In this document: in pieces, positions 3,495-19,929 of the stretch
Layout of the letters: each line of letters begins with the position of its first letter
Numbering within the stretch: position 1 is the stretch's first letter
Origin: Bacteroidales bacterium
GTDB lineage: Bacteria > Bacteroidota > Bacteroidia > Bacteroidales > CAIWKO01
Assembly: GCA_035389045.1 (NCBI GenBank)
Contig: DAOORA010000020.1
Coordinates: 45,669-65,668 of the forward strand
Direction: 5' to 3'
DNA length: 20,000 nt
Notes under the pieces: model-generated
What the model saw: the letters and a program-made list of their open reading frames with translations, nothing else
Told to the model about the DNA's origin: nothing
Database searches by the model: none
Position numbers and translations under genes: made by a program

Positions 3495-3606
3495 TCTGAC
3501 GGACCTTATCCCACAAGGGTAAATTTCATTGGATGTAAAAAGTATCCTGTCAAAAAAAATTCCGAACTTTGAGCCGAAACATGCTTTTTTACATAGAAAT
3601 ACAGCA

Positions 3607-6600
3607 ATGAAGAACACATCACCGCCCAATACTTCCGACGCATTAAAAGCCAATCTCACCGTGACCAGGCCCAAAAAAATTGTGCTGACCGATGAACACA
3701 AATGGTTATTGGGGCTTTCAGCCAATTACTATGGAATTCAGGAACGTACAACGAACTTTTTCAACGAATATCATCATCCTTTTCCCGACCAGAAACTGAT
3801 CAGCGATGAACTCCGGCGCCTGGCACTGGGCGATTTCTGGTTTTATGCTCAGTGCCGTGATAAAGAAAAGGCGCTCAGGATCATATTGGGAATATTTGAA
3901 GAAACTCTCGAAAAAACAAAGGATCAGGTTGTTTTTGAAAGCGTATTTCCGGCATTTGTTGAATACTTAGCCATGATTGCCCGCCATGAAATCCCTGATA
4001 TCGAATTGCTTAAAGCCGGGCTGGGTATAATGAAAAAATGGATCGCCATAAATCATTTGGTGGTACTCAGAAATTCAACATATTTAAAAAATCAGCTCGG
4101 ACTGCTTCATCATAATGAATTGCTTAAAAATGAGTTTTTTCAGCTACTGTATGAACTTGCAGGTAGAGTATTACATTTCTGGGCAGACACTTCGGACGTG
4201 GAAATATGGTACAAAAAGAACAGGGAATATTTAAGCAAAGGTTTTGCCCATGAACTGAGAAATATAGGTAAACCCTATTTTAATAAACTGATTAAGAAGT
4301 GGGAAAGCGTGCGGAATTTTGATGAGCTCGACAAAAACATCCCTCTTTATCAAGAATTTACAGATTATTTTACAAAACATACCGATACTTTTCATGTTAT
4401 AAACGACCGTTTTTATTTTATTGTCTACCTGATGCATATCCCGGGTATGGTTCATATCAAAAACACCCTTCTTGCTGATCTGAACAGGCTGATAAAAAAG
4501 ATGTTTCTGGAGATCAAACCCGAACAGGCCGACCCTTTCCTGGATAATATTTTTTCACTTTTTCATGAATTACACAAAGAACATAGCTCCACGGTATTGG
4601 ATTGTGTTTTAACTTTAGGAAAAGAAATTATCCACACTGACCATGAAGAAAATATTCAGAAATTTGTTCAAAAGCTCATTGGGCTTCCGTTCGTAGTACC
4701 CGGTAAGCTGAGACTCAGCAACGAATGGAGAACGATGGTTGATCCCGGTCATATAAAAAACATCCGTGTATGGCTGGAATTATTCGAAACGGCTCCTGAC
4801 CAATATTCGAAACTCATCGCTGCACTCACCGTGAACCTCAAACTGAACGGTATTTTTATTTTCGACACCGACCTGTTCCAGAAAGATGTAACTGCACTGC
4901 TGAATTCAGATATCCAAAAATATTTCAGGCTTGTCAAACAGCTTTGCCGGATATTTCCGGTATATTTCAATGAGATAGGCGCTGAAGGAGAGTTACGGGA
5001 CATCACAACAGCCATTGATGAACTTACGAGCCGTCAGGACAAACTCATCCACTTTCTGCGAAAACAGGTGCATATTGAAAGCAACAACACCCATATCGAA
5101 CTAACCCGAAAGATCTATAATTTTTGGATAGACGGACAAATCGACAATCTGAAACCCTTATTACCTGAAGATGTACTGGCAAACATCAGCCCAAACGGGA
5201 AATGGGTAGCACCCATGCATAAACTCATTATGAAGGTGGCTGAAAAAGCCCACATAAAACAGGCCACCGAACTATTAGAAGAGCATCCTGACAAAATAGA
5301 CAAACTGGTAAACACCATTACCGGCGAACTACCGGCAAACAAAATAAGACTCATGATGTTATGCCGGCTGTATTATTTGCTTATTGAAAAATACTCATTC
5401 AATACGGTCAACATCACAAAAAGCATCCTGAAATATAATTTTATTCCACATTCGGAGGTCGAAGCACTGGAGGATGCTTTGTCGAAAAAGAACAGGGAAG
5501 CCGCTCTTACATATATTTTCAGCTTTATCAGCCTTCTCAATAAAGTTATACTGCAGGAAGAAAAAACTGAAGGATGGGAAAATATTTATCACAAGCGGCA
5601 TGTTGCATTCGGAATCCCTTCCATGTATGGGGAGTACCATGAACGTCGTTTTGAAGCGCTGGGACTGATCTACAAATTGGAACAGGCTGCTTTGCTGATC
5701 ATGGAAGAATGGGTGAAATCCATCAACCTGAATTACATTACCGCCAAAACTCTCGAAAAAATTGCTTCCGTACTGCAACTATATAAAGAAGGTCTGTTGC
5801 TGGACGGTATTGAAAACAATGCGTTCAATTCAAACCTCAGCATGTTCGATTATAGTTTGAAATCGCAAAGTTTTTCGCTGGGTCAGTACACCAATATTTT
5901 CGGTTTCATGGGAGAAAATATCCGTGAGATCATCAGTAAATATTTTTTCAGGCCTTATGAAGAAGTCCTGAAAATTGTGATCCCGCGGATGCCTGCCAGG
6001 CAACGCATTGATGGCCCCGATGTACAGAGTTTTCTGCATATGCAATCTGAGTCATTTTACCGGGATATGCTGTCCTCCTCGTTTTTATTGCAGAGCCTCG
6101 ATAACTTTATCACTACCGTGCTGACCTCCCTGCGCAGTATGATGGACAATTACAGCATAGATAAGATCCGCGACATCATGTCGTACAACCCTGATATGGT
6201 GATCAGTACGCTGTATGACCAATCAAAAAATATTGACAACCAGGTATATATCGGATCGAAAGCCTATTACCTCAAGAAGCTGTATTCATTAGGATACCCG
6301 GTACCGCCCGGATTTGTTATCACTACCGAGGTTTTCCGGCGTATTGACACGATACTCCAGAACAAAATGATGAGCCGGGAGATTGACAACATGATCATGG
6401 CCCAGATAAAAAAACTGGAAAAAATGACAGGCCAGGAATTTGGCAATCCCAGAAACCCGTTGATGCTTTCCGTACGTTCAGGCACAGCCGTATCGATGCC
6501 CGGCGCGATGAATACTTTTTTAAATGTGGGTATCAATGAGAAAATCATTGAAGCGCTCAGCGTGCAACCCAATTATGGCTGGACTTCATGGGATTGCTAT

Positions 6601-7704
6601 CGCAGGTTCCTGCAGAGTTGGGGTATGGCATCAGGACTGACGCGCGACACCTTTGACCAGATCATGATTGATTTCAAGAAGATGTATAATGTAAAACAAA
6701 AAGTACAGTTCACAAAAGAGCAAATGAGGGAGATATCCTTTGGTTACCGTGAGGTTTTGCAGAAAAATAACATCCAGATCGAAGAAGAAGTATTTCCGCA
6801 GATCAGACAAGCCATTCTGAATGTTTTTGATTCATGGAATTCCGACCGTGCCATAGTGTACCGCAAGCATCTTCAGATTGCAGATGAATGGGGCACCGCC
6901 GTAGTTGTCCAAAAGATGGTGCTCGGAAACATCAATTATACATCAGGAACCGGCGTAGTGTTCACTCATAATCCTCATATGAATAAGCCGGGTGTCCATT
7001 TATACGGTGATTATTCACTGGTCAGCCAGGGTGAAGACGTAGTTGGCGGGCTGGTTCATGTACTTCCTATTTCTCGAAATCAGACACACGGTCGCACCAA
7101 AGAAAGCTCTCTTGAAGAAAAATTTCCTGAAACATACAGGCGGTTATACGAAATTGCATGTGAACTGACTGAAAAACATGGCTTCGGACACCAGGAAATT
7201 GAGTTCACCTTTGAAACTGAGCATAAGAAGGATCTGTACATACTTCAAACCCGCGACCAGGACGTCCGTCCCAAGGACAAAACACACCAATTTGCCCTTA
7301 CCGGCGTAAAAATGAAACTGCTTGGACAAGGCATAGGAATTGGCGGAGGATCATTGAACGGTGTACTGATCTTTGATACCGAAGATATGGAACTGATGAG
7401 AAACAAATACCCGGATAAAAAACTCATATTGGTCAGGCCGGACACTGTACCTGACGACATTGGCATTATATTCGGATGCGACGGACTGCTTACCGCACGC
7501 GGCGGAGCGACCTCACACGCTGCAGTCACGGCTGCACGATTAGGAAAAATATGTATTGTCAACTGTACCGACCTGACGGTTTACGAACGGGAGAAAAAAT
7601 GCGTAATCAAAAAACAAGTATTAAATGTTGGCGATGAAATTGCTATGGATGGCACATTCGGAAATATTTACAAGGGCAAATACCCTTTGATGCAACCCGA
7701 ATAA
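3607..7704 (+). CDS. PPDK-like dikinase: ~880-aa unknown N-terminal region + ATP-grasp nucleotide-binding domain + phospho-His swivel domain; no PEP/pyruvate TIM barrel
   Basis: IGSKAYYL..LGYPVPPGFVITTE (from ~6250), LSVRSGTAVSMPGAMNTFLNVG, WDCYRRFLQ, QGEDVVGG, EIEFTFE...LYILQTR, and GGATSHAAVTAARLGK (His codon 7516-7518). The protein stops right after the His domain. ATG 3607 preferred over the TTG at 3529. Confidence 0.85.
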   Translation: MKNTSPPNTSDALKANLTVTRPKKIVLTDEHKWLLGLSANYYGIQERTTNFFNEYHHPFPDQKLISDELRRLALGDFWFYAQCRDKEKALRIILGIFEETLEKTKDQVVFESVFPAFVEYLAMIARHEIPDIELLKAGLGIMKKWIAINHLVVLRNSTYLKNQLGLLHHNELLKNEFFQLLYELAGRVLHFWADTSDVEIWYKKNREYLSKGFAHELRNIGKPYFNKLIKKWESVRNFDELDKNIPLYQEFTDYFTKHTDTFHVINDRFYFIVYLMHIPGMVHIKNTLLADLNRLIKKMFLEIKPEQADPFLDNIFSLFHELHKEHSSTVLDCVLTLGKEIIHTDHEENIQKFVQKLIGLPFVVPGKLRLSNEWRTMVDPGHIKNIRVWLELFETAPDQYSKLIAALTVNLKLNGIFIFDTDLFQKDVTALLNSDIQKYFRLVKQLCRIFPVYFNEIGAEGELRDITTAIDELTSRQDKLIHFLRKQVHIESNNTHIELTRKIYNFWIDGQIDNLKPLLPEDVLANISPNGKWVAPMHKLIMKVAEKAHIKQATELLEEHPDKIDKLVNTITGELPANKIRLMMLCRLYYLLIEKYSFNTVNITKSILKYNFIPHSEVEALEDALSKKNREAALTYIFSFISLLNKVILQEEKTEGWENIYHKRHVAFGIPSMYGEYHERRFEALGLIYKLEQAALLIMEEWVKSINLNYITAKTLEKIASVLQLYKEGLLLDGIENNAFNSNLSMFDYSLKSQSFSLGQYTNIFGFMGENIREIISKYFFRPYEEVLKIVIPRMPARQRIDGPDVQSFLHMQSESFYRDMLSSSFLLQSLDNFITTVLTSLRSMMDNYSIDKIRDIMSYNPDMVISTLYDQSKNIDNQVYIGSKAYYLKKLYSLGYPVPPGFVITTEVFRRIDTILQNKMMSREIDNMIMAQIKKLEKMTGQEFGNPRNPLMLSVRSGTAVSMPGAMNTFLNVGINEKIIEALSVQPNYGWTSWDCYRRFLQSWGMASGLTRDTFDQIMIDFKKMYNVKQKVQFTKEQMREISFGYREVLQKNNIQIEEEVFPQIRQAILNVFDSWNSDRAIVYRKHLQIADEWGTAVVVQKMVLGNINYTSGTGVVFTHNPHMNKPGVHLYGDYSLVSQGEDVVGGLVHVLPISRNQTHGRTKESSLEEKFPETYRRLYEIACELTEKHGFGHQEIEFTFETEHKKDLYILQTRDQDVRPKDKTHQFALTGVKMKLLGQGIGIGGGSLNGVLIFDTEDMELMRNKYPDKKLILVRPDTVPDDIGIIFGCDGLLTARGGATSHAAVTAARLGKICIVNCTDLTVYEREKKCVIKKQVLNVGDEIAMDGTFGNIYKGKYPLMQPE

Positions 7705-7730
7705 CAGGGATTATACACCCTGTTACTTTA
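7702..7730 (+). terminator. Stem-loop overlapping the stop codon of the PPDK-like gene (weak terminator or mRNA stability hairpin)
   Basis: taacaggg-attataca-ccctgtta, perfect 8-bp stem (7702-7725), followed only by cttta, a poor U-tract. Confidence 0.35.
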
Positions 7731-7831
7731 TGCAAGAACGGTCATCATTGATAATAAAATACAATTAGTGAAATAACCATAAACATAAAACATATTAAAT
7801 AATATATTAATTAATTAAATTATTGTGAAAC

Positions 7832-9085
7832 ATGAAAGCGGAGATAAAAAACAAGAATTATTTAGGCATTAACAGTCTTGGCAGAATTGGCAAATTAACG
7901 CTTTGGAACCAACTCGTCACGCGTCATTTCGATGGAATAGTCATTAATCTTGGCCGTAAAACGGGAAAAAAAATTGAAGATCTTGTACAGGCACTTGGAA
8001 CCGACTCAACCTACGGCGACCTGGGAAATTTTCTTTACGGACAAAAATCAAGGCGTGATTTGATAAATATAGTGGATTCCGAACAGTATCTGTTTGACAT
8101 TGACGGTATGCCGGTGAAAGTCCTTACGGAAGAGCGAAATCCGGCTGCTGTACCATGGAAAAAGGAACAGGTTCAGATTGTAGTAGATTGTACGGGGCAA
8201 TTTACGGATCCCACCCTTGCTCCTGACAGCCCGAAAGGAAGCCTGCGCGGACACCTGGAAGGCGGTGCGCGTAAAGTGATTGTGAGCGCTCCCTTCAAAA
8301 TAAAGGAAGCAGGGAAGAAAATGCCCGACGACAGTATTATGATGGTTTTTGGCATCAATCACCTCGAATATGACCCGCTCAGACACCACGTAATTTCTGC
8401 GGCCAGTTGCACCACCACAGGCTTATCGCATATGATCAAACCGCTGATGGAGGACCGTTTCACTTCAAAAATTCTCACGGCTTCCATGTCGACCGTACAT
8501 GCAGCCACCAACACGCAAAGTGTCCTCGACGCCTTACCCAAATCCGGCGCCAGCGATCTCCGTAAGACCCGTTCTGTTTTTAATAATATCATTCTATCCA
8601 CCACAGGGGCAGCAAAAGCGCTGGAATCCATCATTCCGCAGATACAGGAAATTGGTTTTATGGCCGATTCGGTACGCATTCCCACCTCCACAGTGTCTAT
8701 GATAACACTGAATATTACCTTTAATTCAGGTCTTGATGAAAAAGGAAATCCCATTATCAACCATAAGCATATCAATAATATCTATAAAAGCGCCGCCGAA
8801 GGGCCTCAAAAAGGGCTGCTGGTATTTTCAGAAAAACAGAATGTGTCAACCGACCTCCTGGGTTTCAGGGCAGCTATTGTCATTGAAGGCCACGAAAGCC
8901 ACACCCGTACAGGCTTCATCAAACTGCCGGCAGAAACGGTAAAGGCGCTGGGCGTCAAAAGTCCGGTTGATATCAATATACCAGTGACACATGCCAAAAT
9001 ATTCGGCTGGTACGACAATGAATTCGGGAGCTATGTCAACCTGCTCGATAAGCTGACATGTTACATCGATCAGCATATCCGTTAA
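7832..9085 (+). CDS. gap: Divergent type I glyceraldehyde-3-phosphate dehydrogenase family protein (417 aa)
   Basis: LGINSLGRIG Rossmann motif, VDCTGQFT, HLEGGARKVIVSAP, catalytic SAASCTTTGL (Cys193), TVHAAT (His223), STTGAAKA, SVRIPTSTVS, WYDNEFG. Confidence 0.8.
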   Translation: MKAEIKNKNYLGINSLGRIGKLTLWNQLVTRHFDGIVINLGRKTGKKIEDLVQALGTDSTYGDLGNFLYGQKSRRDLINIVDSEQYLFDIDGMPVKVLTEERNPAAVPWKKEQVQIVVDCTGQFTDPTLAPDSPKGSLRGHLEGGARKVIVSAPFKIKEAGKKMPDDSIMMVFGINHLEYDPLRHHVISAASCTTTGLSHMIKPLMEDRFTSKILTASMSTVHAATNTQSVLDALPKSGASDLRKTRSVFNNIILSTTGAAKALESIIPQIQEIGFMADSVRIPTSTVSMITLNITFNSGLDEKGNPIINHKHINNIYKSAAEGPQKGLLVFSEKQNVSTDLLGFRAAIVIEGHESHTRTGFIKLPAETVKALGVKSPVDINIPVTHAKIFGWYDNEFGSYVNLLDKLTCYIDQHIR

Positions 9086-9124: not shown

Positions 9125-10393
9125 ATGTCAATATTACTCAGCAACGCCACTTACATAGACTACCAGACACTGGAATTTATACCATGTAACATCATTATTG
9201 AAAGCTATCCCTATTCCACTATTGTTTTTACTGAAAAACAGGACAACGGCGCCGATACTAAGGTTGATTGTTCAGGGAAATATGTCACACGGGCATTTGG
9301 CTGCGGACATCATCATGTATATTCGGCGCTTGCAACAGGAATGCCCGCTCCCAAAAAAATCCCGTCGAATTTTTTAGAGATACTGCAATACGTATGGTGG
9401 ACACTGGATAAGTGTCTGGATAAAGAAATGATTGAGATCAGCGCCCTGGTCACCGCCATCGAATGTGCCAGAAATGGGGTAACCTGTGTGGTGGACCATC
9501 ACTCCTCTCCTTTCGCCATTGAAGGTTCACTCGAAATAATAGCCAAAGCCTTTGATCAGGTAGGCATATCACATCTTTTGTGTTATGAAATTTCCGACCG
9601 CGACGGAGAACAAGCAGTGAAACAGTCACTTGACGAAACAGCGGATTTTCTTTCACACAGGCAGGGACTAGTAGGTCTTCATGCCTCATTTACCGTATCT
9701 GACCAAACACTCAGGCAGGCAAAGGAGCTTACCGAAAAATTTGACACGGGTATTCATATCCATGTTGCTGAGGATGAGTTAGACGAACGATTATGTGTTG
9801 AACATCAAGGCAAACGGGTTGTTGAACGTTTGAACGACCACGGACTGCTGAAGAATAACAAAACGATACTGAGCCATTGCTTATACATCAACCATAAAGA
9901 AAGAGAGATAATAGGCAAATCGGGAGCCTGGATTGCACAGAATACCGAAAGCAACATGAATAACAAGGTTGGATTTTTCAATTCGGAAGGAATAAAAAAG
10001 AATATTATGCTTGGCACCGACGGCATGCACAGCGACATGCTGAAAAGTGCAAAAACAACTTTTTTTGCAGGTCAGAATTTTGATAAAATTGATTATGCCG
10101 AAACCTACCGCCGTCTCAGAAATGTTAATTTCTATTTTAATGAAAACGGTTTTTCCGGTGATGCCGATAACAACCTGGTAGTGCTTGACTATAACCCATA
10201 TACAGAGTTCAATTCAGGGAATTTTTTAGGTCATTTTATTTTCAGCATCGAATCAAAACATGTTCAGCATGTGATATCTGATGGCAGACTCATCGTCAAA
10301 GACCGCAAGGTTATTACAGTGGATGAAGATGAGATACACAAAGCCAGCAGGGAATTAAGCAAAAAACTCTGGAACAAAATGAAAGAACTTTAG
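9125..10393 (+). CDS. ssnA: SsnA-like metal-dependent amidohydrolase
   Basis: HxH motif in CGHHHVYSALATGM, followed by NFLEILQYVWWTLDKCLD, VVDHHSSP, GLHASFT, HIHVAED and LGTDG; these segments match the SsnA subfamily pattern. Confidence 0.75.
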   Translation: MSILLSNATYIDYQTLEFIPCNIIIESYPYSTIVFTEKQDNGADTKVDCSGKYVTRAFGCGHHHVYSALATGMPAPKKIPSNFLEILQYVWWTLDKCLDKEMIEISALVTAIECARNGVTCVVDHHSSPFAIEGSLEIIAKAFDQVGISHLLCYEISDRDGEQAVKQSLDETADFLSHRQGLVGLHASFTVSDQTLRQAKELTEKFDTGIHIHVAEDELDERLCVEHQGKRVVERLNDHGLLKNNKTILSHCLYINHKEREIIGKSGAWIAQNTESNMNNKVGFFNSEGIKKNIMLGTDGMHSDMLKSAKTTFFAGQNFDKIDYAETYRRLRNVNFYFNENGFSGDADNNLVVLDYNPYTEFNSGNFLGHFIFSIESKHVQHVISDGRLIVKDRKVITVDEDEIHKASRELSKKLWNKMKEL

Positions 10394-10480
10394 TATTTAA
10401 CCATAGCAAATATATTTTTTCTCAGAGGATCATCCCTAAGCATAACAATTTTACAACCATAAGACTACAAACAACTGCTC

Positions 10481-11860
10481 ATGCCTCTCCTGATAAAAAA
10501 CCCGCTGATTGTCAATGCCGGTGAAAGTAACGTAGCCGATATCCTTATAGATAAGGGTATTATCGTTGAGATTTCCGGAAATATTGATGCCGGGAACCAT
10601 CAAATTATAGATGCAGGAGGTCTGTATGCCTTTCCCGGCGGCATCGATCCTCACGTACACCTGCAACTGCCAACACCGGCCGGAAATTCAAGTGATGATT
10701 TCAGAAGTGGTACCATTGCGGCTTTAGCGGGAGGAACTACAACCATCATTGATTTTGTGACCCCCAGGCGCGGGCAGTCGCATACCGAAGCCCTACGGTT
10801 GCGAAAATCAGAAGCGACGGCATCCCTGACCGATTACAGCCTGCATGGCAGCATCGTTTCGCTGAATGAAAATACAGAGGATGAAGTACGTATCTGCATA
10901 GAAGAAGAAGGAATTACTTCTTTTAAAACGTACCTGGCATACCGTAACACGGTTGGTATCAATTATGAAATGTTGCGCCAGGTAATGCAAATAGTTAAAA
11001 AACATAACGGACTGGTCACCATTCACTGCGAGGATGGCGATGAGATCAGCCGTCTGCAGCAGGATTTCGTTTCAAAAGGACTAACATCCCCGCTATACCA
11101 TGCGTTATCGCGCCCCGAATACACCGAATATGAAGCGGTGGCCGAAGTCCTGAAACTTTCTCAGGAAACCGGATGTAATGTTTATATTGTCCATGTTTCA
11201 GCAAAAAGAAGCATGGAACTTATTGCGCCCTGCAGATCTTCGGGAAAGGTATTTGCCGAAACCTGCCCGCACTATTTGCTTTTAGACGACAGCAATTATC
11301 AAAAGCCCCTCCCCGGCTCACTAAAATATGTGATAAGCCCGCCAAATCGAAATAAGGAAAGTATAGAAGCCCTGTGGCAACATATCACAGATGGAACCAT
11401 TGACGTACTTTCGACCGACCATTGCCCGTTCCACACCTTTGGTCAAAAAGATACCGGCGCTGATAATTTCACCCTGATACCCAATGGCGCAGGGGGTATT
11501 GAATACCGCCTTGCCCTTTTGTATACTTACGGAGTGCTTGAAAAAAGAATTTCTCTTAACCGTTTTACAGAACTTACTTCAACCAATGCTGCGAAAATTT
11601 TCGGGTTGTATCCTCAAAAAGGTATCATCGCCGTAGGTTCCGATGCAGATATGGTGTTATGGAATCCTGGTGCGGAAGGGATCATCTCCCGCAAGACACA
11701 ATTTCAAAACTGTGATTCAAATATCTATGACGGGATTCCTGTTAAAGGGTCACCGGAGTATGTCATCTGTGGCGGAAAAATAGCCTTCGCACATGGAAAA
11801 GCAGTTACAGAAGGGTTACATGGGAGATTTCTTAAAAGGCTACTGCGCCGGATGATTTGA
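10481..11860 (+). CDS. hydA: Dihydropyrimidinase / D-hydantoinase (HydA/HyuA family)
   Basis: PGGIDPHVHL, AALAGGTTTIIDF, SFKTYLAY (carbamylated Lys), IHCEDG, YIVHVS, AETCPHYL, STDHCPF, IPNGAGGIE, AAKIFGLYPQKG. Confidence 0.9.
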   Translation: MPLLIKNPLIVNAGESNVADILIDKGIIVEISGNIDAGNHQIIDAGGLYAFPGGIDPHVHLQLPTPAGNSSDDFRSGTIAALAGGTTTIIDFVTPRRGQSHTEALRLRKSEATASLTDYSLHGSIVSLNENTEDEVRICIEEEGITSFKTYLAYRNTVGINYEMLRQVMQIVKKHNGLVTIHCEDGDEISRLQQDFVSKGLTSPLYHALSRPEYTEYEAVAEVLKLSQETGCNVYIVHVSAKRSMELIAPCRSSGKVFAETCPHYLLLDDSNYQKPLPGSLKYVISPPNRNKESIEALWQHITDGTIDVLSTDHCPFHTFGQKDTGADNFTLIPNGAGGIEYRLALLYTYGVLEKRISLNRFTELTSTNAAKIFGLYPQKGIIAVGSDADMVLWNPGAEGIISRKTQFQNCDSNIYDGIPVKGSPEYVICGGKIAFAHGKAVTEGLHGRFLKRLLRRMI

Positions 11861-13725: not shown

Positions 13726-16700
13726 ATGAAAACAATTAAAATCATTGCTCTTATTCTTCTGGTGTCGGTGACTGCCATTGCAGTAAAATCAGTCATTCCG
13801 GCTTTTTTTTCTGAGCGGTCGGCCGGCGTAATGATCTCTCCAAACGACGACTATAATAAACTCTGGGCAAAAGCCGATTCGCTGCTTAACAAAGGCCTTA
13901 CACGCTCGGCTATAGAAGTGGTTCAGGTGATTTACGAAAAAGCCAAACTGGAAAATAATACCGGAAATTTCGTTAAAGCCGTCACCTATAAACTCCGGCT
14001 CGAATCTTATATCAGCGAGGATGATTATGTTAAGGAAATCAATGATCTTAACAAAGAAGCCGCTGAAGCACGCTTTCCCATCAAGCCGGTAATACATTCG
14101 ATGATCGCCGAAGTATACTGGAAATATTACCAGAACAACCGGTACAAGTTTCTGAACCGTACCGAAACAGTGGATTTTGTTCCTGAAGATATCAGGACAT
14201 GGGATCTGAGAAAGATCGTGGAACAATCGATCAAATATTATCAGTTGTCACTCGAAAATGTCGATAGTCTAAAAAATACATCCATAAATGTGTATGATGA
14301 AATAATTGTGAAACAAGGCGGCGATTCAAAAAATTTCAGGCCAACACTTTATGACTTCCTTATACACCGTGCCATAGATTTTTTTGCAAACGAAGAGCCG
14401 GGACTGGTAAGCCCTGTCAACCGTTTTGAGATTGACAAAGCTGAATTTTTTGCCCCCTATGATTCATATATCATTTTCCAGATAAAAACGAATGACAAGT
14501 ATTCATTGAATTATTATGCAGCCAGGTTGTTTCAGGATCTGCTTGACTTCCATAAGAACGATGCCGACCCGCGATCACTTATTGATAACGATTTGAAGCG
14601 CCTGAAATTTATGAAGCAAAAATCTATAAACCCTGATAAGGATACCTTATTCATGCAGGCACTTGAAACGCTCAATAAAAAATTTGAATCTTTTCCGGCA
14701 TCTTCTGAAGTGATTTATGAAATTGCCAATTATTATTACCAACAGGGCGCTACCTATGCATCAACCAACGACGAGTCAGATCGCTGGAAACTTAAAAAAG
14801 CTTATGAAATCTGCGACATAGCTATTAAAAAATTCCCGGATGCTTTCGGATCAAACAACTGCAAATACCTGCAGTCAAAGATCAGGGAGAAATCGCTGAC
14901 TTTTACCAGCGAAGAAGTAAATGTCCCCGGAAAGCCTTTCAGGGGTCTTCTTTCCTACCACAACCTGAACAAGGTGTATATCAGGATTTGCAAGGCAGAT
15001 TACAAATGGTATGATAAACTGATCAGTCAGTATTATTACGATGACAAACTTATCCAGCCTCTACTTAAACTTACTCCGCAAAAAACATTCAGTGTGGATA
15101 TTACAACCCCCGGGGATTATCAAAGCCATTCGGCAGAAATCAAAATTCCCGAACTGGAAGCCGGTTTTTACGTGATACTTATCGGAACCGATGCCGGTTT
15201 CACATATAACACTGAAGCCATAGCCTATTCCAGTTTCTGGATGTCAAACCTGTCTTACCTGAAGCGCACAACAGAGAGCGGAAAGACTCAGTTCGTCGTG
15301 ATGAACCGCGAAAACGGGCAAGCAGTCAAAGGGGTTTCGGCACAGGTTTACAACGAAATATACAACTATGCGTCACGCCGGTATGAATACCACAGCGGTC
15401 CGGTCTATTTAACCGATGAGAACGGTATGTTTGAGGTTGTTTCTACGTCTAACAACTACAATAATTCATATATTGAATTCAATTATTCAAATGATAAGCT
15501 GAAATCAACCGTTTTTTACCAGTATAAATCGTATAAAAATGAAAAAAAGAAATACAACAGGACTATATTCTTTACGGACAGGATGATATACCGCCCCGGG
15601 CAGACAATTTATTTTAAAGGAATATTGCTCGAAACCGACGGTGAAAATTCAGTAATAAAGCCGGGCATAGAAAGCAATGTTGTTTTTTATGATGTCAACT
15701 ATCAGAAAGTTTCGGAAATAAAACTCACCAGCAATGAATACGGTACATTTAGTGGTTCTTTCACCATACCCACCGGCTTGCTCAACGGTCAGATGCACAT
15801 TGCAGATAACTGGGGCAGCATATATTTCTCTGTAGAAGAATATAAACGCCCGAAATTTGAAGTGAAATTTGAACCTGTGAAAGGATCGTACAAACTGGGT
15901 GAGAAAGTAACCGTTAAGGGTACGGCCGTTGCCTATGCGGGCTCCAATATCGATAATGCACAGGTAAAATACCGTGTGGTGCGTACGGCACGTTTCCCGT
16001 ATTGGTGGTACTACTGGTACGGATATTACCCGAATTCGCCACAGATGGAAATAACTAACGGAAACACCACTACTGATGATAAGGGCGAATACACCATAGA
16101 ATTTACCGCCATACCGGATTACAAGGTCAGCCGAAAATCCGACCCTGTATTCTCTTATGTGATCTATGCTGACGTTACTGATATCAATGGAGAAACACGC
16201 TCCTCGCAGACCACGGTGAACGCCGGTTACAAAGCGCTGATGGTGGCCGTTGGATTACCCGGCGAAATAGAAAAAAGCAGCAAAGACCCCTTTGTCATTT
16301 CTACAACCAACCTGAGCGGCACGTACGAATATGCCACAGGCAGCATCATCATCCACAAGCTGAAACAACCGGAGAAACTATTCCGCAGCAGGTTATGGAA
16401 AGAACCCGATATAAAACTTATTTCGAAAAATGATTATTATCAATGGTTTCCATATGACCTTTACGAAGATGAAAATAACACCTCCAGGTGGGCCAAAGAA
16501 AGCAAAGTAATGGAATACGACTTCGATACAGAGAAAGATTCGCTGATGCATATTCCGAACCTTTCCACATGGCAATCAGGGCAATATGTTCTTGAGATCA
16601 CTTCGGTTGACAAATTCGGTGAAAAAGTTCAGGCCTTCATCTATTTTACAGTATATTCAAAAAACGATAAAACCATACCTGTAAACGATTTTGCATGGTT

Positions 16701-19700
16701 TGCAACCATCAAAGCCAAAGGTGAACCAGGCGAAGAAGCAACTTTTCTTGTAGGTACAAAAGAGCTGAATGTACACGTACTTATGGAAGTGGAAGTAAGG
16801 AATACCATCGTGCAGAAACAATGGCTCAAATTAAACAATGAATTAAAAAATATCAATATACCTATAAAAGAAGAATACCGCGGCAACTTTGCAGTGCACT
16901 TCACTTTTATCCGCCAGGGCAGAGTGTACCGGTATGATGTTAACGTAGAAGTCCCTTATACAAACAAAGAGCTGGATATTAACTTTGAGACGTTCCGCAA
17001 CAAACTGGAACCTGGCCAGAAAGAAGAATGGAAAATCAGGATAAAAAGTAAAAACGGAGAAAAAGCTGCTGCAGAGATGCTTGCGGGTATGTATGATGCC
17101 TCACTGGACGCCTACCGGTCAAATTCCTGGTATCTGGCACTCTTCAGCAATTTCTACATGAGACAGCAGTGGGAAACATCCAATGGATTTTCCACAGAAG
17201 TATCAAACATCTACACCGTGAACTGGAACCCATACGTATATTTTCACTACCGTTATTATGATTACCTTAACTGGTTTGGCTATGACAGTTATTATTACCG
17301 CTATGCTAACAGAGGAGATTATGAATATGATTATTTTGAAGCCAATCAACCGGTATCTATGGATGAAGTGGTTACTGCCGCTGAATCAACCGGAGGAAAA
17401 AGAGTTGCAAAAACTGTTTTGGCACAAGGCCAGGCTGGCGGAATGACAGAAGCTGCAGACAACATCGATAGCAGAGAAAAAAAAGACGATTCTTACAAAA
17501 CGGCAAACACAGGATTGTTGGATGGAACTGTAGCAGGCGAAATTGCAAAAGACAAAGATCTGAATTTCAGCGATATAAAAACACGTACCAATTTTAACGA
17601 AACCGCATTTTTCTATCCTCACCTGCTCACCAACGAAAACGGAGAAATTATAATTTCTTTCACCGTGCCCGAAGCGCTTACAAAATGGAAATTCATGGGA
17701 CTTGCCCATACCAAAGATCTTAAAATTGGCACTATACAAAAGGAGGTGCTTACACAAAAAGACCTGATGGTTGTTCCTAACCCTCCCCGCTTCTTCCGCG
17801 AAAACGACCGTATCGTTTTTTCCTCTAAAATAACCAATCTCTCAGCAGACTCAATAAACGCCTATGCCACCTTAATGCTTTTCAATGCGGAAACCCAGCA
17901 GCCTATTGATGTATTGACAGGCAATACCGATCAGGTGAAATGTGTTGGCATACCCAAAGGACAGAGCAAGGCGGTAGAGTGGTCAATATCCATACCCGAG
18001 AACATTCCGGCCATCACTTACAAAGTTGTGGCCAAAGCCGGAAACTTCACCGATGGCGAGGAAATGATCATTCCTGTTTTAACAAACCGTATGCTGGTCA
18101 CCGAAACCATGCCGCTACCCATACGCGGAAACCAGGTTAAGAATTTCAATTTCGAAAAACTCATCAACGCATACAAATCCAACACACTGAAAAACTATAA
18201 ACTTACTCTCGAATTCACATCCAACCCATCGTGGTATGCGGTTCAGGCGCTCCCATACATGATCGAATATCCCTACGAATGTACCGAGCAGATATTCAGC
18301 CGTTTTTATGCCAACAGCATTGCTACTTACATCGCTAATTCCAATCCTAAGATCAGGGAAGTGTTTGACAGCTGGAAAAACATCACACCAGACGCCTTGT
18401 TGTCAAATCTTGAGAAGAATCAGGATCTTAAATATGTAATGTTGCAGGAAACCCCCTGGGTGCTTGAGGCAAAAAGCGAATCGCAGTCGAAACGCAATAT
18501 CGGCATTCTGCTTGAAGAAAAACGAATGAAAACCGAGATTGAACGCGCTCTGAAGAAACTCGAAAAATTACAGGTCTCGAACGGAGGATGGACATGGTTC
18601 CCCGGCATGCCCGACGACCGTTATATCACACAACATATCATCACAGGATTCTGCCACCTTGACAAGCTTGGGGTCAGGGACATCCGCGATCAGTACAAGG
18701 TATGGAACATGGTCAAAAGAGGTTCTCATTACCTTGATGACCGTATCCGAGAGGATTATGAATGGCTGTTAAGATATGATCCGGATCACATGTTTGAAAA
18801 TCACCTTGGTGGAATACAGATACAATATCTTTATGCCCGAAGTTATTTTATTAAATCTATCCCTGTTGAAGCAAAGAATAAAAAGGCTTTCGACTATTAT
18901 TTCGGGCAGGCAAAAAAATACTGGTTACAAAACAACCGTTACCTTCAAGGCATGATAGCACTGTCTTTGAACCGTCTGGAAGAAAAAATAACAGCCACAG
19001 ACATTGTAAAATCGCTCAAGGAAAATGCAATCTTCAGTGAAGAAATGGGCATGTACTGGAAAGATATGGATTACGGATATTATTGGTATCAGGCGCCTAT
19101 CGAAACACAGGCGTTGCTGATCGAATGTTTTGATGAAGTAGCCAACGACAAACAGTCGGTCGAAGAAATGAAAGTCTGGCTGCTCAAACAAAAACAGACA
19201 CAAAACTGGAAGACGACCAAGGCAACAGCGGAAGCCTGTTACGCTTTGTTGTTAAGGGGGACAGACTTCCTGGCCAACGACCCGCAAGTCAGCATAACAC
19301 TTGGAGGAATGCTTGTAGATCCAAAGAATTTGCCCGATGTAAAACAACAGGCAGGAACAGGCTATTTCAGGACATCATGGCTGGAAGATGCCATAAAACC
19401 AGACATGGGAAAAGTGAAAGTTACAAAATCGGATGATGGCATTGCTTGGGGGGCACTATACTGGCAATATTTTGAACAGCTGGACAAGATCACGCCTGCT
19501 CAGACACCCTTAAAGATTGAAAAGAAACTGTTTGTAGAACGTAACTCAGACCATGGCCCTGTGATAACTCCCATTACAGATGATACCAAACTGAAACTCG
19601 GCGACAAGATAAAAGTGCGTATTGAACTCCGTTCAGACCGCGATATGGAATACATCCACATGAAAGACATGAGGGCCAGCGGATTTGAACCCATCAATGT

Positions 19701-19929
19701 TATTTCGCAATACAAATATCAGGGAGGCCTTGGCTACTACGAAAGCACGGGCGATGCCGCCACCAACTTCTTTATCTCGTATCTTAAAAAAGGAACCTAT
19801 GTCTTTGAATATCCTTTACGTGTGGCTCAAAAGGGCGATTTCTCCAATGGTATCACGTCGATACAGTGCATGTATGCCCCTGAATTTTCGGCCCATTCCG
19901 AGGGAATCAGAGTGAAAGTTTCCGGATAG
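13726..19929 (+). CDS. Bacterial alpha-2-macroglobulin family protein (2067 aa)
   Basis: FFTDRMIYRPGQTIYFKG, VEEYKRPKFEV, RTNFNETAFFYPHL, PEALTKWKFMG, PRFFRENDRI, thioester YPYECTEQ (Cys1519, codons 18280-18291), C-terminal DMRASGFEP and IQCMYAPEFSAHS. Hydrophobic N-terminal signal or anchor. Confidence 0.92.
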   Translation: MKTIKIIALILLVSVTAIAVKSVIPAFFSERSAGVMISPNDDYNKLWAKADSLLNKGLTRSAIEVVQVIYEKAKLENNTGNFVKAVTYKLRLESYISEDDYVKEINDLNKEAAEARFPIKPVIHSMIAEVYWKYYQNNRYKFLNRTETVDFVPEDIRTWDLRKIVEQSIKYYQLSLENVDSLKNTSINVYDEIIVKQGGDSKNFRPTLYDFLIHRAIDFFANEEPGLVSPVNRFEIDKAEFFAPYDSYIIFQIKTNDKYSLNYYAARLFQDLLDFHKNDADPRSLIDNDLKRLKFMKQKSINPDKDTLFMQALETLNKKFESFPASSEVIYEIANYYYQQGATYASTNDESDRWKLKKAYEICDIAIKKFPDAFGSNNCKYLQSKIREKSLTFTSEEVNVPGKPFRGLLSYHNLNKVYIRICKADYKWYDKLISQYYYDDKLIQPLLKLTPQKTFSVDITTPGDYQSHSAEIKIPELEAGFYVILIGTDAGFTYNTEAIAYSSFWMSNLSYLKRTTESGKTQFVVMNRENGQAVKGVSAQVYNEIYNYASRRYEYHSGPVYLTDENGMFEVVSTSNNYNNSYIEFNYSNDKLKSTVFYQYKSYKNEKKKYNRTIFFTDRMIYRPGQTIYFKGILLETDGENSVIKPGIESNVVFYDVNYQKVSEIKLTSNEYGTFSGSFTIPTGLLNGQMHIADNWGSIYFSVEEYKRPKFEVKFEPVKGSYKLGEKVTVKGTAVAYAGSNIDNAQVKYRVVRTARFPYWWYYWYGYYPNSPQMEITNGNTTTDDKGEYTIEFTAIPDYKVSRKSDPVFSYVIYADVTDINGETRSSQTTVNAGYKALMVAVGLPGEIEKSSKDPFVISTTNLSGTYEYATGSIIIHKLKQPEKLFRSRLWKEPDIKLISKNDYYQWFPYDLYEDENNTSRWAKESKVMEYDFDTEKDSLMHIPNLSTWQSGQYVLEITSVDKFGEKVQAFIYFTVYSKNDKTIPVNDFAWFATIKAKGEPGEEATFLVGTKELNVHVLMEVEVRNTIVQKQWLKLNNELKNINIPIKEEYRGNFAVHFTFIRQGRVYRYDVNVEVPYTNKELDINFETFRNKLEPGQKEEWKIRIKSKNGEKAAAEMLAGMYDASLDAYRSNSWYLALFSNFYMRQQWETSNGFSTEVSNIYTVNWNPYVYFHYRYYDYLNWFGYDSYYYRYANRGDYEYDYFEANQPVSMDEVVTAAESTGGKRVAKTVLAQGQAGGMTEAADNIDSREKKDDSYKTANTGLLDGTVAGEIAKDKDLNFSDIKTRTNFNETAFFYPHLLTNENGEIIISFTVPEALTKWKFMGLAHTKDLKIGTIQKEVLTQKDLMVVPNPPRFFRENDRIVFSSKITNLSADSINAYATLMLFNAETQQPIDVLTGNTDQVKCVGIPKGQSKAVEWSISIPENIPAITYKVVAKAGNFTDGEEMIIPVLTNRMLVTETMPLPIRGNQVKNFNFEKLINAYKSNTLKNYKLTLEFTSNPSWYAVQALPYMIEYPYECTEQIFSRFYANSIATYIANSNPKIREVFDSWKNITPDALLSNLEKNQDLKYVMLQETPWVLEAKSESQSKRNIGILLEEKRMKTEIERALKKLEKLQVSNGGWTWFPGMPDDRYITQHIITGFCHLDKLGVRDIRDQYKVWNMVKRGSHYLDDRIREDYEWLLRYDPDHMFENHLGGIQIQYLYARSYFIKSIPVEAKNKKAFDYYFGQAKKYWLQNNRYLQGMIALSLNRLEEKITATDIVKSLKENAIFSEEMGMYWKDMDYGYYWYQAPIETQALLIECFDEVANDKQSVEEMKVWLLKQKQTQNWKTTKATAEACYALLLRGTDFLANDPQVSITLGGMLVDPKNLPDVKQQAGTGYFRTSWLEDAIKPDMGKVKVTKSDDGIAWGALYWQYFEQLDKITPAQTPLKIEKKLFVERNSDHGPVITPITDDTKLKLGDKIKVRIELRSDRDMEYIHMKDMRASGFEPINVISQYKYQGGLGYYESTGDAATNFFISYLKKGTYVFEYPLRVAQKGDFSNGITSIQCMYAPEFSAHSEGIRVKVSG

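Follow-up and report, generated by a model that had tools for sequence, protein, structure and literature searches.

The gene pair and its locus

A 20,000-nucleotide stretch of the genome of a Bacteroidales bacterium (contig DAOORA010000020.1, positions 45,669 to 65,668; hereafter the window) carries two neighboring genes that are the subject of this work. The first, which we call dik, encodes a predicted dikinase related to pyruvate phosphate dikinase (PPDK), and the second encodes a member of the glyceraldehyde-3-phosphate dehydrogenase (GAPDH) family, hereafter the GAPDH-like protein or, with its relatives, the 417-aa type. An earlier, sequence-only reading of this DNA had placed here an adjacent and co-oriented pair made up of a barrel-less dikinase and an atypical GAPDH; both genes were found on the + strand at the positions claimed, and both descriptions agree with the family and score data given below. 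The features of the pair are collected in Table 1.

The large open reading frame (ORF) that contains dik was listed from a TTG codon at position 3529, and the version that begins at the ATG at 3607 is 1365 aa long. The gene was taken as 3607-7704 because 120 listed homologues are 1357-1400 aa long and align over 96-100% of the ATG-3607 version. A scan of the spacer between the two genes detected no terminator-like site, and promoter-like matches there were at chance level. In two metatranscriptome runs, contigs of at least 99% identity matched parts of both genes, at low depth and without spanning the spacer, and DNA carry-over is possible. These RNA contigs are no evidence of co-transcription. 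The PADLOC defence models matched neither protein (0 families at E<=0.001).

Table 1. Positions in the window of dik, the GAPDH-like gene and their parts.
Feature	Position	Strand	Basis or remark
dik, barrel-less dikinase gene, 1365 aa	3607..7704	+	ORF from ATG 3607, homologue lengths, PF01326 and PF00391 only
dik N-domain, residues 1-870, predicted all-helical	3607..6216	+	without family or fold match
dik N-domain conserved core, residues 352-706	4660..5724	+	invariant columns, low entropy
Core motifs: DTDLFQ (residue 420), IGAEGELR (457), HFLRKQVH (482), KRHxAxGIPSMYG hairpin (663)			
dik PPDK-type ATP-grasp nucleotide domain, residues ~880-1217	6244..7257	+	alignment to 1kbl
dik swivelling phospho-His domain, residues ~1237-1359	7315..7683	+	alignment to 1kbl, PF00391
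dik putative catalytic His1304, within GGATSHAA	7516-7518	+	
AT-rich spacer between dik and the GAPDH-like gene, 127 bp	7705..7831	no strand	
GAPDH-like dehydrogenase gene, 417 aa	7832..9085	+	PF00044, PF02800, TIGR01534 below cut-off
GAPDH-like Cys193 codon	8408-8410		
GAPDH-like His223, within VHAAT			
GAPDH-like N39-x-G41-R42			in place of the N-D motif

The dikinase half of dik

Two Pfam families were recognized in dik, PPDK_N (PF01326, 122 bits) and PEP-utilizers (PF00391, 57 bits), and both fall within residues ~880-1360; PEP-utilizers_C, the phosphoenolpyruvate (PEP)/pyruvate TIM barrel, had no Pfam match anywhere in the protein. The C-terminal 495 aa align with residues 16-337 (193 bits) and 389-509 of the PPDK of Clostridium symbiosum (1kbl). 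The protein ends six residues past the last aligned residue of the His domain, equivalent to PPDK position ~509 of 873, which is the point where the PPDK linker to the barrel would start. Motifs of PPDK that are kept include the G-x-K near the start, SVRSG, the SMPG loop (SMPGAMNT), ExEFT (EIEFT) and LQTR (LQTRD), and we take their catalytic roles to be those of PPDK. The GGATSHAA segment with His1304 aligns to GGMTSHAA of 1kbl, the T-S-H phospho-His motif.

The model scores place dik outside the named families. It scored 367.3 bits on the PPDK model (TIGR01828, cut-off 843.45), 81 and 94.1 bits on the PEP synthase models TIGR01418 (cut-off 739.75) and NF005057 (598), 33.2 bits on the rifampicin phosphotransferase model NF041857 (999), and 25.5 and 36.7 bits on the PigC (1300) and RedH (1350) models. 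Because the score is far nearer to that of PPDK than to those of PEP synthase, the phosphotransfer half was probably derived from PPDK, which works with inorganic phosphate (Pi) and pyrophosphate (PPi), and not from the water dikinases. As judged from these alignments, what PPDK needs for the reaction E-His + ATP + Pi <-> E-His~P + AMP + PPi is retained in dik, and the PEP/pyruvate barrel has been lost. The source genome also holds a true, full-length PPDK (1245 bits).

The N-domain of dik

The first 870 aa of dik (the N-domain) had nothing over threshold in a Pfam search that extended to E 10. Only one match was found among PDB sequences, at E 0.35, and all matches in the protein atlas were under 0.9. 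When 33 N-domains from many phyla were aligned, 42 columns nonetheless proved invariant, most densely in residues 362-692, and the conserved core held 37 invariant columns among the 33 sequences. The conserved motifs are GGIFIxDTDLFQRD, FPVYFxEIGAEGELR, RLIHFLRKQVHxESNNT and ENIYxKRHIAAGIPSMYGxYxEPKFEALG, and most of the invariant residues, which lie within short motifs (DTD, EGE, RKQxH, and KRH), are polar or charged.

AlphaFold2 modelled the N-domain as all-helical with one beta-hairpin, which bears KRH...IPSMYG (pLDDT 86.1, pTM 0.77), and the core alone with a pLDDT of 87.0. With the whole N-domain as query, Foldseek against the PDB returned alpha-solenoids only at E<=0.001, with TM scores of 0.14 or less, and VIA-align wide returned helical bundles, the best with Z 10.8 over 95 residues. 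With the core alone, Foldseek gave no match at E<=0.001 and the best VIA Z was 6.9; both Z values fall in the range that the tool rates as common for helical models. The modelled fold is best described as unrecognised, not as proven new.

A profile of the core, searched against 1.84 billion representative proteins, gave 384 matches at E<=0.001, of which the best 150 were examined. These 150 were ~1335-1540 aa long or fragments, and when 10 long relatives were scanned PPDK_N was detected in all 10 and PEP-utilizers in seven. Among the core-profile matches listed, the N-domain was confined to the dikinase architecture. Two distant relatives of dik, P0334 (1540 aa) and P0323 (1455 aa), carry a hemerythrin HHE domain. 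Hemerythrin domains are typical of sensor proteins, and the fusion may point to a sensing role (oxygen, iron or redox) for some members of the dik family.

The 417-aa GAPDH-like protein

The GAPDH-like protein contains both GAPDH Pfam domains (PF00044 and PF02800) and scored 295.7 bits on TIGR01534, below the cut-off of 367.2. The two canonical GAPDHs of the source genome scored 444.1 and 372.9 bits on the same model and share 30-33% identity with it. Compared with these canonical copies of ~335 aa, the 417-aa protein is interrupted by eight insertions and extended by a tail at its C-terminus. The two longest insertions add 13 aa behind residue 65 and 24 aa behind residue 358, the second of them following the invariant sequence EGHExHTRTGF (residues 352-362). 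Sequences of this clade from Bacteroidales, Clostridia, Geobacteraceae and Cloacimonas are 62-71% identical to one another.

The catalytic residues Cys193 (in SCTT) and His223 were invariant across 13 aligned sequences, including the two canonical GAPDHs. Also invariant were the equivalents of the phosphate-site residues, namely Ser192, Thr194, Thr226, Thr258-Gly259, Arg244, Arg247, and Arg282. The equivalent of Arg195 is Lys245, which is Lys or Arg in the family and lies between the invariant Arg244 and Arg247. In the usual GAPDH numbering, we take the substrate-phosphate site to be formed by Thr179 and Arg231 and the inorganic-phosphate site by Ser148, Thr150, Thr208-Gly209 and Arg195, with their accepted roles. 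The alignment supported the view that the GAPDH-like protein keeps the Cys/His pair and both anion sites expected of an acyl-phosphate-forming dehydrogenase.

Asp32, the acidic residue at the end of beta-2 that selects NAD, is replaced by N39-L-G41-R42, of which N39, G41 and R42 were invariant in 11 family members. In the canonical GAPDHs compared (21 dik-adjacent genes and the source genome's own two) an acidic residue was kept at this position in 23 of 23, as N-D in 22 and as N-E in one. Because the NAD-selecting Asp is replaced, general Rossmann-fold rules suggest acceptance of NADP(H), and the GAPDH-like enzyme probably accepts it.

The second canonical GAPDH of the source genome, which is the one that scored 372.9 bits (G000:C2:70898-71863; L004:1492-2496), is encoded between genes for a nucleoside:H+ symporter and an AMP-binding protein of the acyl-CoA-ligase type. 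On visual inspection, the N-terminal motif of this copy seems closer to the one in the canonical gap that, in other genomes, lies upstream of dik in the same orientation.

Linkage and co-occurrence of dik and GAPDH genes

The sequence-only reading had proposed that the two genes form a two-gene module, had named a survey of gene neighborhoods as one check and had mentioned similar pairs in anaerobic deltaproteobacteria. The pairing was surveyed from both sides. For the first sample, 80 genome loci were picked by relatives of the GAPDH-like gene at 47-82% identity, and dik was sought in them by tblastn. As named in their records, these loci span Bacteroidota, Bacillota, Thermodesulfobacteriota, Myxococcota, Cloacimonadota, Calditrichota, Sumerlaeota, Fermentibacter, Actinomycetota, Chloroflexia, Acidobacteriota, Gemmatimonadetes, Methylomirabilota and others. 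The dik gene was present in 69 of the 80, within 1 kb in 64 and at 1.07-6.7 kb in five. In the 64 close loci, dik was upstream and co-oriented in 42, as in the window, downstream and convergent in 15, and upstream and divergent in seven; the convergent loci were mostly from Desulfobacterota and the divergent ones from Thermoleophilia. Adjacency in three orientations at this frequency is far beyond chance, and the deltaproteobacterial pairs were recovered as well, with loci of Syntrophia, Smithella and Syntrophorhabdus holding the pair in convergent orientation.

Eleven of the 80 loci lacked dik; the flank was too short to judge in seven and there was room for the gene in four. When the whole genomes of five unlinked cases were searched, dik was found elsewhere in four of them. 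Clustering of all ORFs of 81 loci yielded no third conserved gene, the next cluster being present in nine of the 81, and the neighbors in loci without the usual partner were unrelated to each other. In one unlinked case, a Spirochaetales locus (L029:11255-12832), dik does not adjoin the gene of the 417-aa type and is encoded elsewhere in the genome, and an MFS transporter gene comes after the GAPDH-like gene; this layout resembles the ArsJ-associated GAPDH pair.

The second sample comprised 80 metagenome loci picked by the N-domain alone, and a GAPDH-family neighbor was detected in 67 of them. The 417-aa type was the only GAPDH in 38 loci, where it lay immediately downstream of dik, and eight loci had a canonical GAPDH upstream and the 417-aa type downstream. 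A canonical GAPDH alone was found in 21 loci, upstream and divergent in 19; in one of the other two it was upstream and co-oriented, in a locus truncated on its downstream side, and in the other it lay at 1362 bp. In five loci the flank was too short to judge. Three-gene clusters of canonical gap, dik and the 417-aa type were found in Thermoleophilia, Desulfobacterota and a Bacteroidota-like clade, and their arrangements differ.

A FastTree phylogeny was built from 128 complete dik sequences, 43 of 171 sources having been dropped since dik was missing, cut or interrupted. Partner type clusters on this tree, with 17 changes compared with a mean of 48.7 after shuffling. The rows of the Bacteroidales kind with a canonical GAPDH only or with no neighbor form one clade of 30 (21 canonical, nine none) with a local support of 100.

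Among 301 genomes sampled from the phylum, dik was detected in the source genome only. Among 201 genomes sampled from the order, dik was found in 19 and the 417-aa type in nine, all within those 19; in this sample the 417-aa type was seen only alongside dik, and dik also occurs without it. Ten same-order genomes have dik and lack the 417-aa type, and in six of these ten loci a canonical GAPDH gene adjoins dik. We conclude that dik and GAPDH genes are a functionally coupled module in many bacterial phyla, and that the presence of a GAPDH of either kind beside dik ties dik to GAPDH chemistry in general.

Two sequences, P0241 (1588 aa) and P0242 (1000 aa), have dik running into the N-terminal half of a 417-aa-type GAPDH. 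Both are singletons and were not counted as evidence; one of them passes abruptly and in frame from dik to GAPDH, the other contains low-complexity stretches that look like frameshifts, and the fusions may be artefacts of assembly or gene calling.

Relation to phosphoglycerate kinase

The sequence-only reading had further held that the pair replaces phosphoglycerate kinase (PGK), and this part did not stand. The source genome has two PGK matches (509.5 and 276.1 bits) in addition to its two canonical GAPDHs. PGK was also present in five of five same-order carriers of dik and in four of five carriers from other phyla, that is, in 10 of the 11 carrier genomes checked when the source genome is included. 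Because PGK is kept in these 10 genomes, the module does not replace it. Replacement of PGK in the carriers is very improbable, even though the lone carrier with no PGK match (G499) is among the 11 and the only PGK match of a Cloacimonas genome is of the divergent type (264.8 bits); G499 is a metagenome bin of unknown completeness.

The second PGK homologue of the source genome is divergent (276 bits vs. 509; G000:C17:58741-59952, L002:1462-2769) and is encoded between genes for a nitroreductase and a ROK-family kinase. Matches of similar score are the sole PGK match of the Cloacimonas genome and the second match in genome G399 (268.9 bits).

Proposed reaction of the module

Our preferred reading, held tentatively and at rather less than an even chance, is that dik is a PPDK-like His-phosphotransferase whose N-domain carries out a third half-reaction, most likely between 3-phosphoglycerate (3-PG) and 1,3-bisphosphoglycerate (1,3-BPG), in parallel with PGK and with the 417-aa protein as partner. 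The enzyme would run two half-reactions of PPDK, in which ATP + Pi are converted to AMP + PPi and His1304~P is formed. The N-domain would be the site of the third, where His~P exchanges its phosphate with a metabolite of the GAPDH reaction. If the phosphate is placed on the carboxylate of 3-PG, the overall reaction would be 3-phosphoglycerate + ATP + Pi <-> 1,3-bisphosphoglycerate + AMP + PPi, and the neighboring GAPDH would interconvert the acyl phosphate 1,3-BPG and glyceraldehyde-3-phosphate. Such a route would operate beside PGK and not instead of it, with dik related to PGK as PPDK is related to pyruvate kinase. The sequence-only reading had already put forward an exchange between 3-PG, or another carboxylate, and its acyl phosphate, and the linkage data give that proposal a better footing as a route alongside PGK.

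The hydrolysis of ATP to AMP and 2 Pi releases about 65 kJ/mol (~-65), and formation of PPi and of an acyl phosphate requires ~+19 and ~+49 kJ/mol, respectively. The net free energy is near zero and the proposed reaction would therefore be reversible, like that of PPDK. The direction that we favor is gluconeogenic, a push that would work at low energy charge and save PPi, because many carriers are not known as sugar fermenters and the dedicated partner lacks the NAD-selecting Asp. Smithella, Syntrophorhabdus, Geobacter, Cloacimonas and Anaerovoracaceae are among these carriers, and we take them to be syntrophs or users of amino acids or acetate. The opposite, PPi-conserving glycolytic direction would be thermodynamically open.

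The full version of this proposal, a new central-carbon reaction between 3-PG and 1,3-BPG with AMP and PPi, an active site in an N-domain of unseen fold and a dedicated, probably NADP-accepting GAPDH, is doubtful in our estimate. In a bolder variant the phosphate may be handed straight into the GAPDH active site, and the pair would then act as a carboxylate reductase without free 1,3-BPG. A complex prediction for dik residues 292-870 with the GAPDH-like protein, both given as alignments, returned a score of 0.00 and no answer, and carries no weight for or against these readings.

A number of observations weigh against the preferred reading. Its substrate is drawn solely from the gene neighbors and the retained anion sites, and the use of NADP from one position only. 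PGK also makes 1,3-BPG, so a dedicated GAPDH clade that occurs only with dik is hard to explain. The structural matches of the N-domain are helical repeats and bundles only, with no known enzyme fold, and two of the 10 long relatives scanned have an added N-terminal hemerythrin domain. The linkage is also imperfect: eight of the 80 dik-picked loci with enough flank have no GAPDH neighbor, and neither do four of the 10 dik loci in same-order genomes that lack the 417-aa type, some of which are cut by contig ends. Finally, the linked loci are not all independent, since the canonical-gap-only arrangement traces to a single clade of 30 rows.

Alternative explanations

In one alternative, dik would act on the GAPDH protein itself, with an Enzyme-I-like transfer from His1304 to a GAPDH residue or to a bound intermediate. 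The purpose would be regulation, delivery of phosphate into the active site without free 1,3-BPG, or repair of an oxidised catalytic Cys. Helical repeats and bundles often bind proteins, and the N-domain matches only alpha-solenoid and helical-bundle scaffolds; the hemerythrin sensor domain, fused in the same two of 10 long relatives, is in keeping with such an action. Inserted loops of the 417-aa type are invariant and contain many His, Thr and Arg residues (EGHExHTRTGF, 352-362), and in the sample searched this type occurs only in genomes with dik. There is also precedent, in that the swivel domain of Enzyme I of the phosphotransferase system (PTS) phosphorylates HPr and EI-Ntr has a sensor domain.

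The conservation of the N-domain speaks against this explanation. Two groups of dik rows were compared, 92 with a 417-aa partner and the 30 of the clade that lacks one. The entropy profiles had the same shape in both groups, with lows at residues 351-500 and 651-700 that match the depth of the ATP-grasp domain. At least 95% invariance in both groups was found for 167 columns, 64 of them within the N-domain, and only one column in the whole protein switches consensus between the groups. Because conservation is the same with or without the 417-aa partner, the core is not a surface dedicated to docking the inserted loops of that partner, which canonical GAPDHs lack; it behaves like a catalytic or ligand site common to all members, as the charged and polar invariant residues in short motifs also suggest. 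Furthermore, the 417-aa type keeps every catalytic residue across many phyla, which argues for an enzyme and not for an acceptor only. We judge action of dik on the GAPDH protein, a form of the protein-substrate alternative named in the sequence-only reading, to be unlikely.

Another explanation changes the metabolite. The module may handle a different pair of phospho-carboxylate and aldehyde, such as a four-carbon phospho-acid, or may phosphorylate a triose, and the canonical gap neighbors would then be read as sharing a pathway with dik and not a substrate. The divergence of the 417-aa clade favors this (30-33% identity to canonical GAPDHs, eight insertions and a C-terminal tail, a score under the TIGR01534 cut-off), as does its dependence on dik in the genomes, which is not reciprocal and fits a product that only dik makes. 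Barrel-less relatives such as rifampicin phosphotransferase and PigC, moreover, phosphorylate quite different acceptors. The retention of both anion sites and of the whole GAPDH catalytic set points the other way. So does the company that dik keeps: a canonical GAPDH with the N-D motif is a neighbor in 29 of the 80 dik-picked loci (21 alone and eight with both types), and in the 10 dik genomes without the 417-aa type it is the only kind of GAPDH neighbor, at six of 10 loci. A substrate outside the 3-PG/1,3-BPG pair is, in our assessment, of low probability.

That two unrelated genes became chance neighbors without functional meaning is barely credible. In its favor, the intergenic scan gave no operon evidence and no RNA contig crosses the spacer; against it, linkage extends across many phyla, co-oriented, convergent and divergent layouts and two GAPDH clades, and co-occurrence in genomes persists when the genes are unlinked.

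Surroundings of the pair

The upstream neighbor of dik in the window is a gene for an RsmI-like methyltransferase, as recognized by Pfam and NCBIfam models. Directly downstream of the pair, positions 9125-11860 encode an SsnA-like amidohydrolase (NF005540, 379 bits, cut-off 444) and a dihydropyrimidinase/D-hydantoinase (TIGR02033, 497 bits), neither of which is conserved with the dik/GAPDH-like pair. In a Lentimicrobium locus (L015), a gene of the 417-aa type that is not linked to dik has a xanthine-dehydrogenase-like molybdoenzyme gene and an ssnA homologue immediately upstream. Other genes of the window encode an archaeal-type ATPase with DUF234 (PF01637; 11932-13374, + strand), a DUF4139-like protein of 524 aa that has a hydrophobic stretch near its N-terminus (1114-2688, - strand; 30.3 bits, cut-off 31.8), and a bacterial alpha-2-macroglobulin-like protein of 2067 aa with MG2, A2M bait region, A2M and bMG10 domains (13726-19929).

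Significance

To our knowledge, PGK is regarded as a fixed step of both glycolysis and gluconeogenesis. A search of published full texts, with subscription journals outside its scope, found no paper on the dik family, the gene pair or a phosphoglycerate dikinase. Passages of a PGK review name the Rapoport-Luebering shunt as the sole bypass of PGK (PMC7729029). The public names of the proteins are generic ("PEP/pyruvate-binding domain-containing protein," "ppdk2," and "glyceraldehyde 3-phosphate dehydrogenase").

The pair points to an undescribed central-carbon step that works beside PGK. If the proposed reaction is correct, it would join PPi-phosphofructokinase and PPDK as a further PPi-linked step of glycolysis or gluconeogenesis, in soil bacteria and anaerobes of many phyla. 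It would change the bookkeeping of ATP and PPi when some soil Actinomycetota and energy-limited anaerobes are modelled; examples of the latter are Bacteroidales of digesters, Cloacimonadota, Syntrophia, and Clostridia that ferment amino acids. Whatever the chemistry proves to be, a large conserved domain without a known fold and a distinct GAPDH clade that is more than 60% identical across phyla, both hidden under generic annotation, are now defined, as is a gene pair open to direct test with two recombinant proteins and a spectrophotometer.

Comparison with known systems

The closest well-characterized relative of dik is PPDK (TIGR01828; 1kbl and 1dik), with which it shares the ATP-grasp and swivelling His domains, the nucleotide and phosphate motifs and the T-S-H sequence. 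PPDK has a PEP/pyruvate TIM barrel; dik has instead an added helical N-terminal domain of 870 aa. The same principle is seen in rifampicin phosphotransferase (NF041857) and in the prodigiosin ligases PigC and RedH (NF052631 and NF052632), whose architecture we take to be an ATP-grasp domain, a swivel His domain and a family-specific acceptor domain that replaces the barrel. The scores of dik on these models were, however, marginal (25-37 bits vs. cut-offs of 999-1350), and its putative acceptor domain is N-terminal, much larger and unrelated to theirs.

PTS Enzyme I and EI-Ntr have the same swivel His domain, and the N-terminal sensor fusion of the latter is comparable to the hemerythrin-fused relatives of dik. 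The swivel His domain of Enzyme I can phosphorylate a protein; its phosphate comes from PEP at the TIM barrel, and there is no ATP-grasp domain. In dik, by contrast, the ATP-grasp domain is present and the barrel absent.

Type I GAPDH (TIGR01534) and the GAPDH-like protein share their fold as well as their catalytic and phosphate-site residues; the GAPDH-like protein differs in its eight insertions, its tail, N-x-G-R in place of Asp32 and a score below the cut-off. On the model of the ArsJ-associated GAPDH (NF033735) it scored 159.7 bits against a cut-off of 450. A gluconeogenic GAPDH that uses NADP has a precedent in GapB of Bacillus subtilis.

Pairs of a kinase and a phosphorylating reductase are familiar from ProB/ProA, ArgB/ArgC and Ask/Asd. 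These pairs and PGK with GAPDH follow the logic proposed here, in which the maker of an acyl phosphate is encoded beside its dehydrogenase. The activating enzyme of the dik pair differs from all of them in being a predicted dikinase-type His-phosphotransferase, and not a PGK or an amino-acid-kinase fold, and in having PGK kept alongside it.

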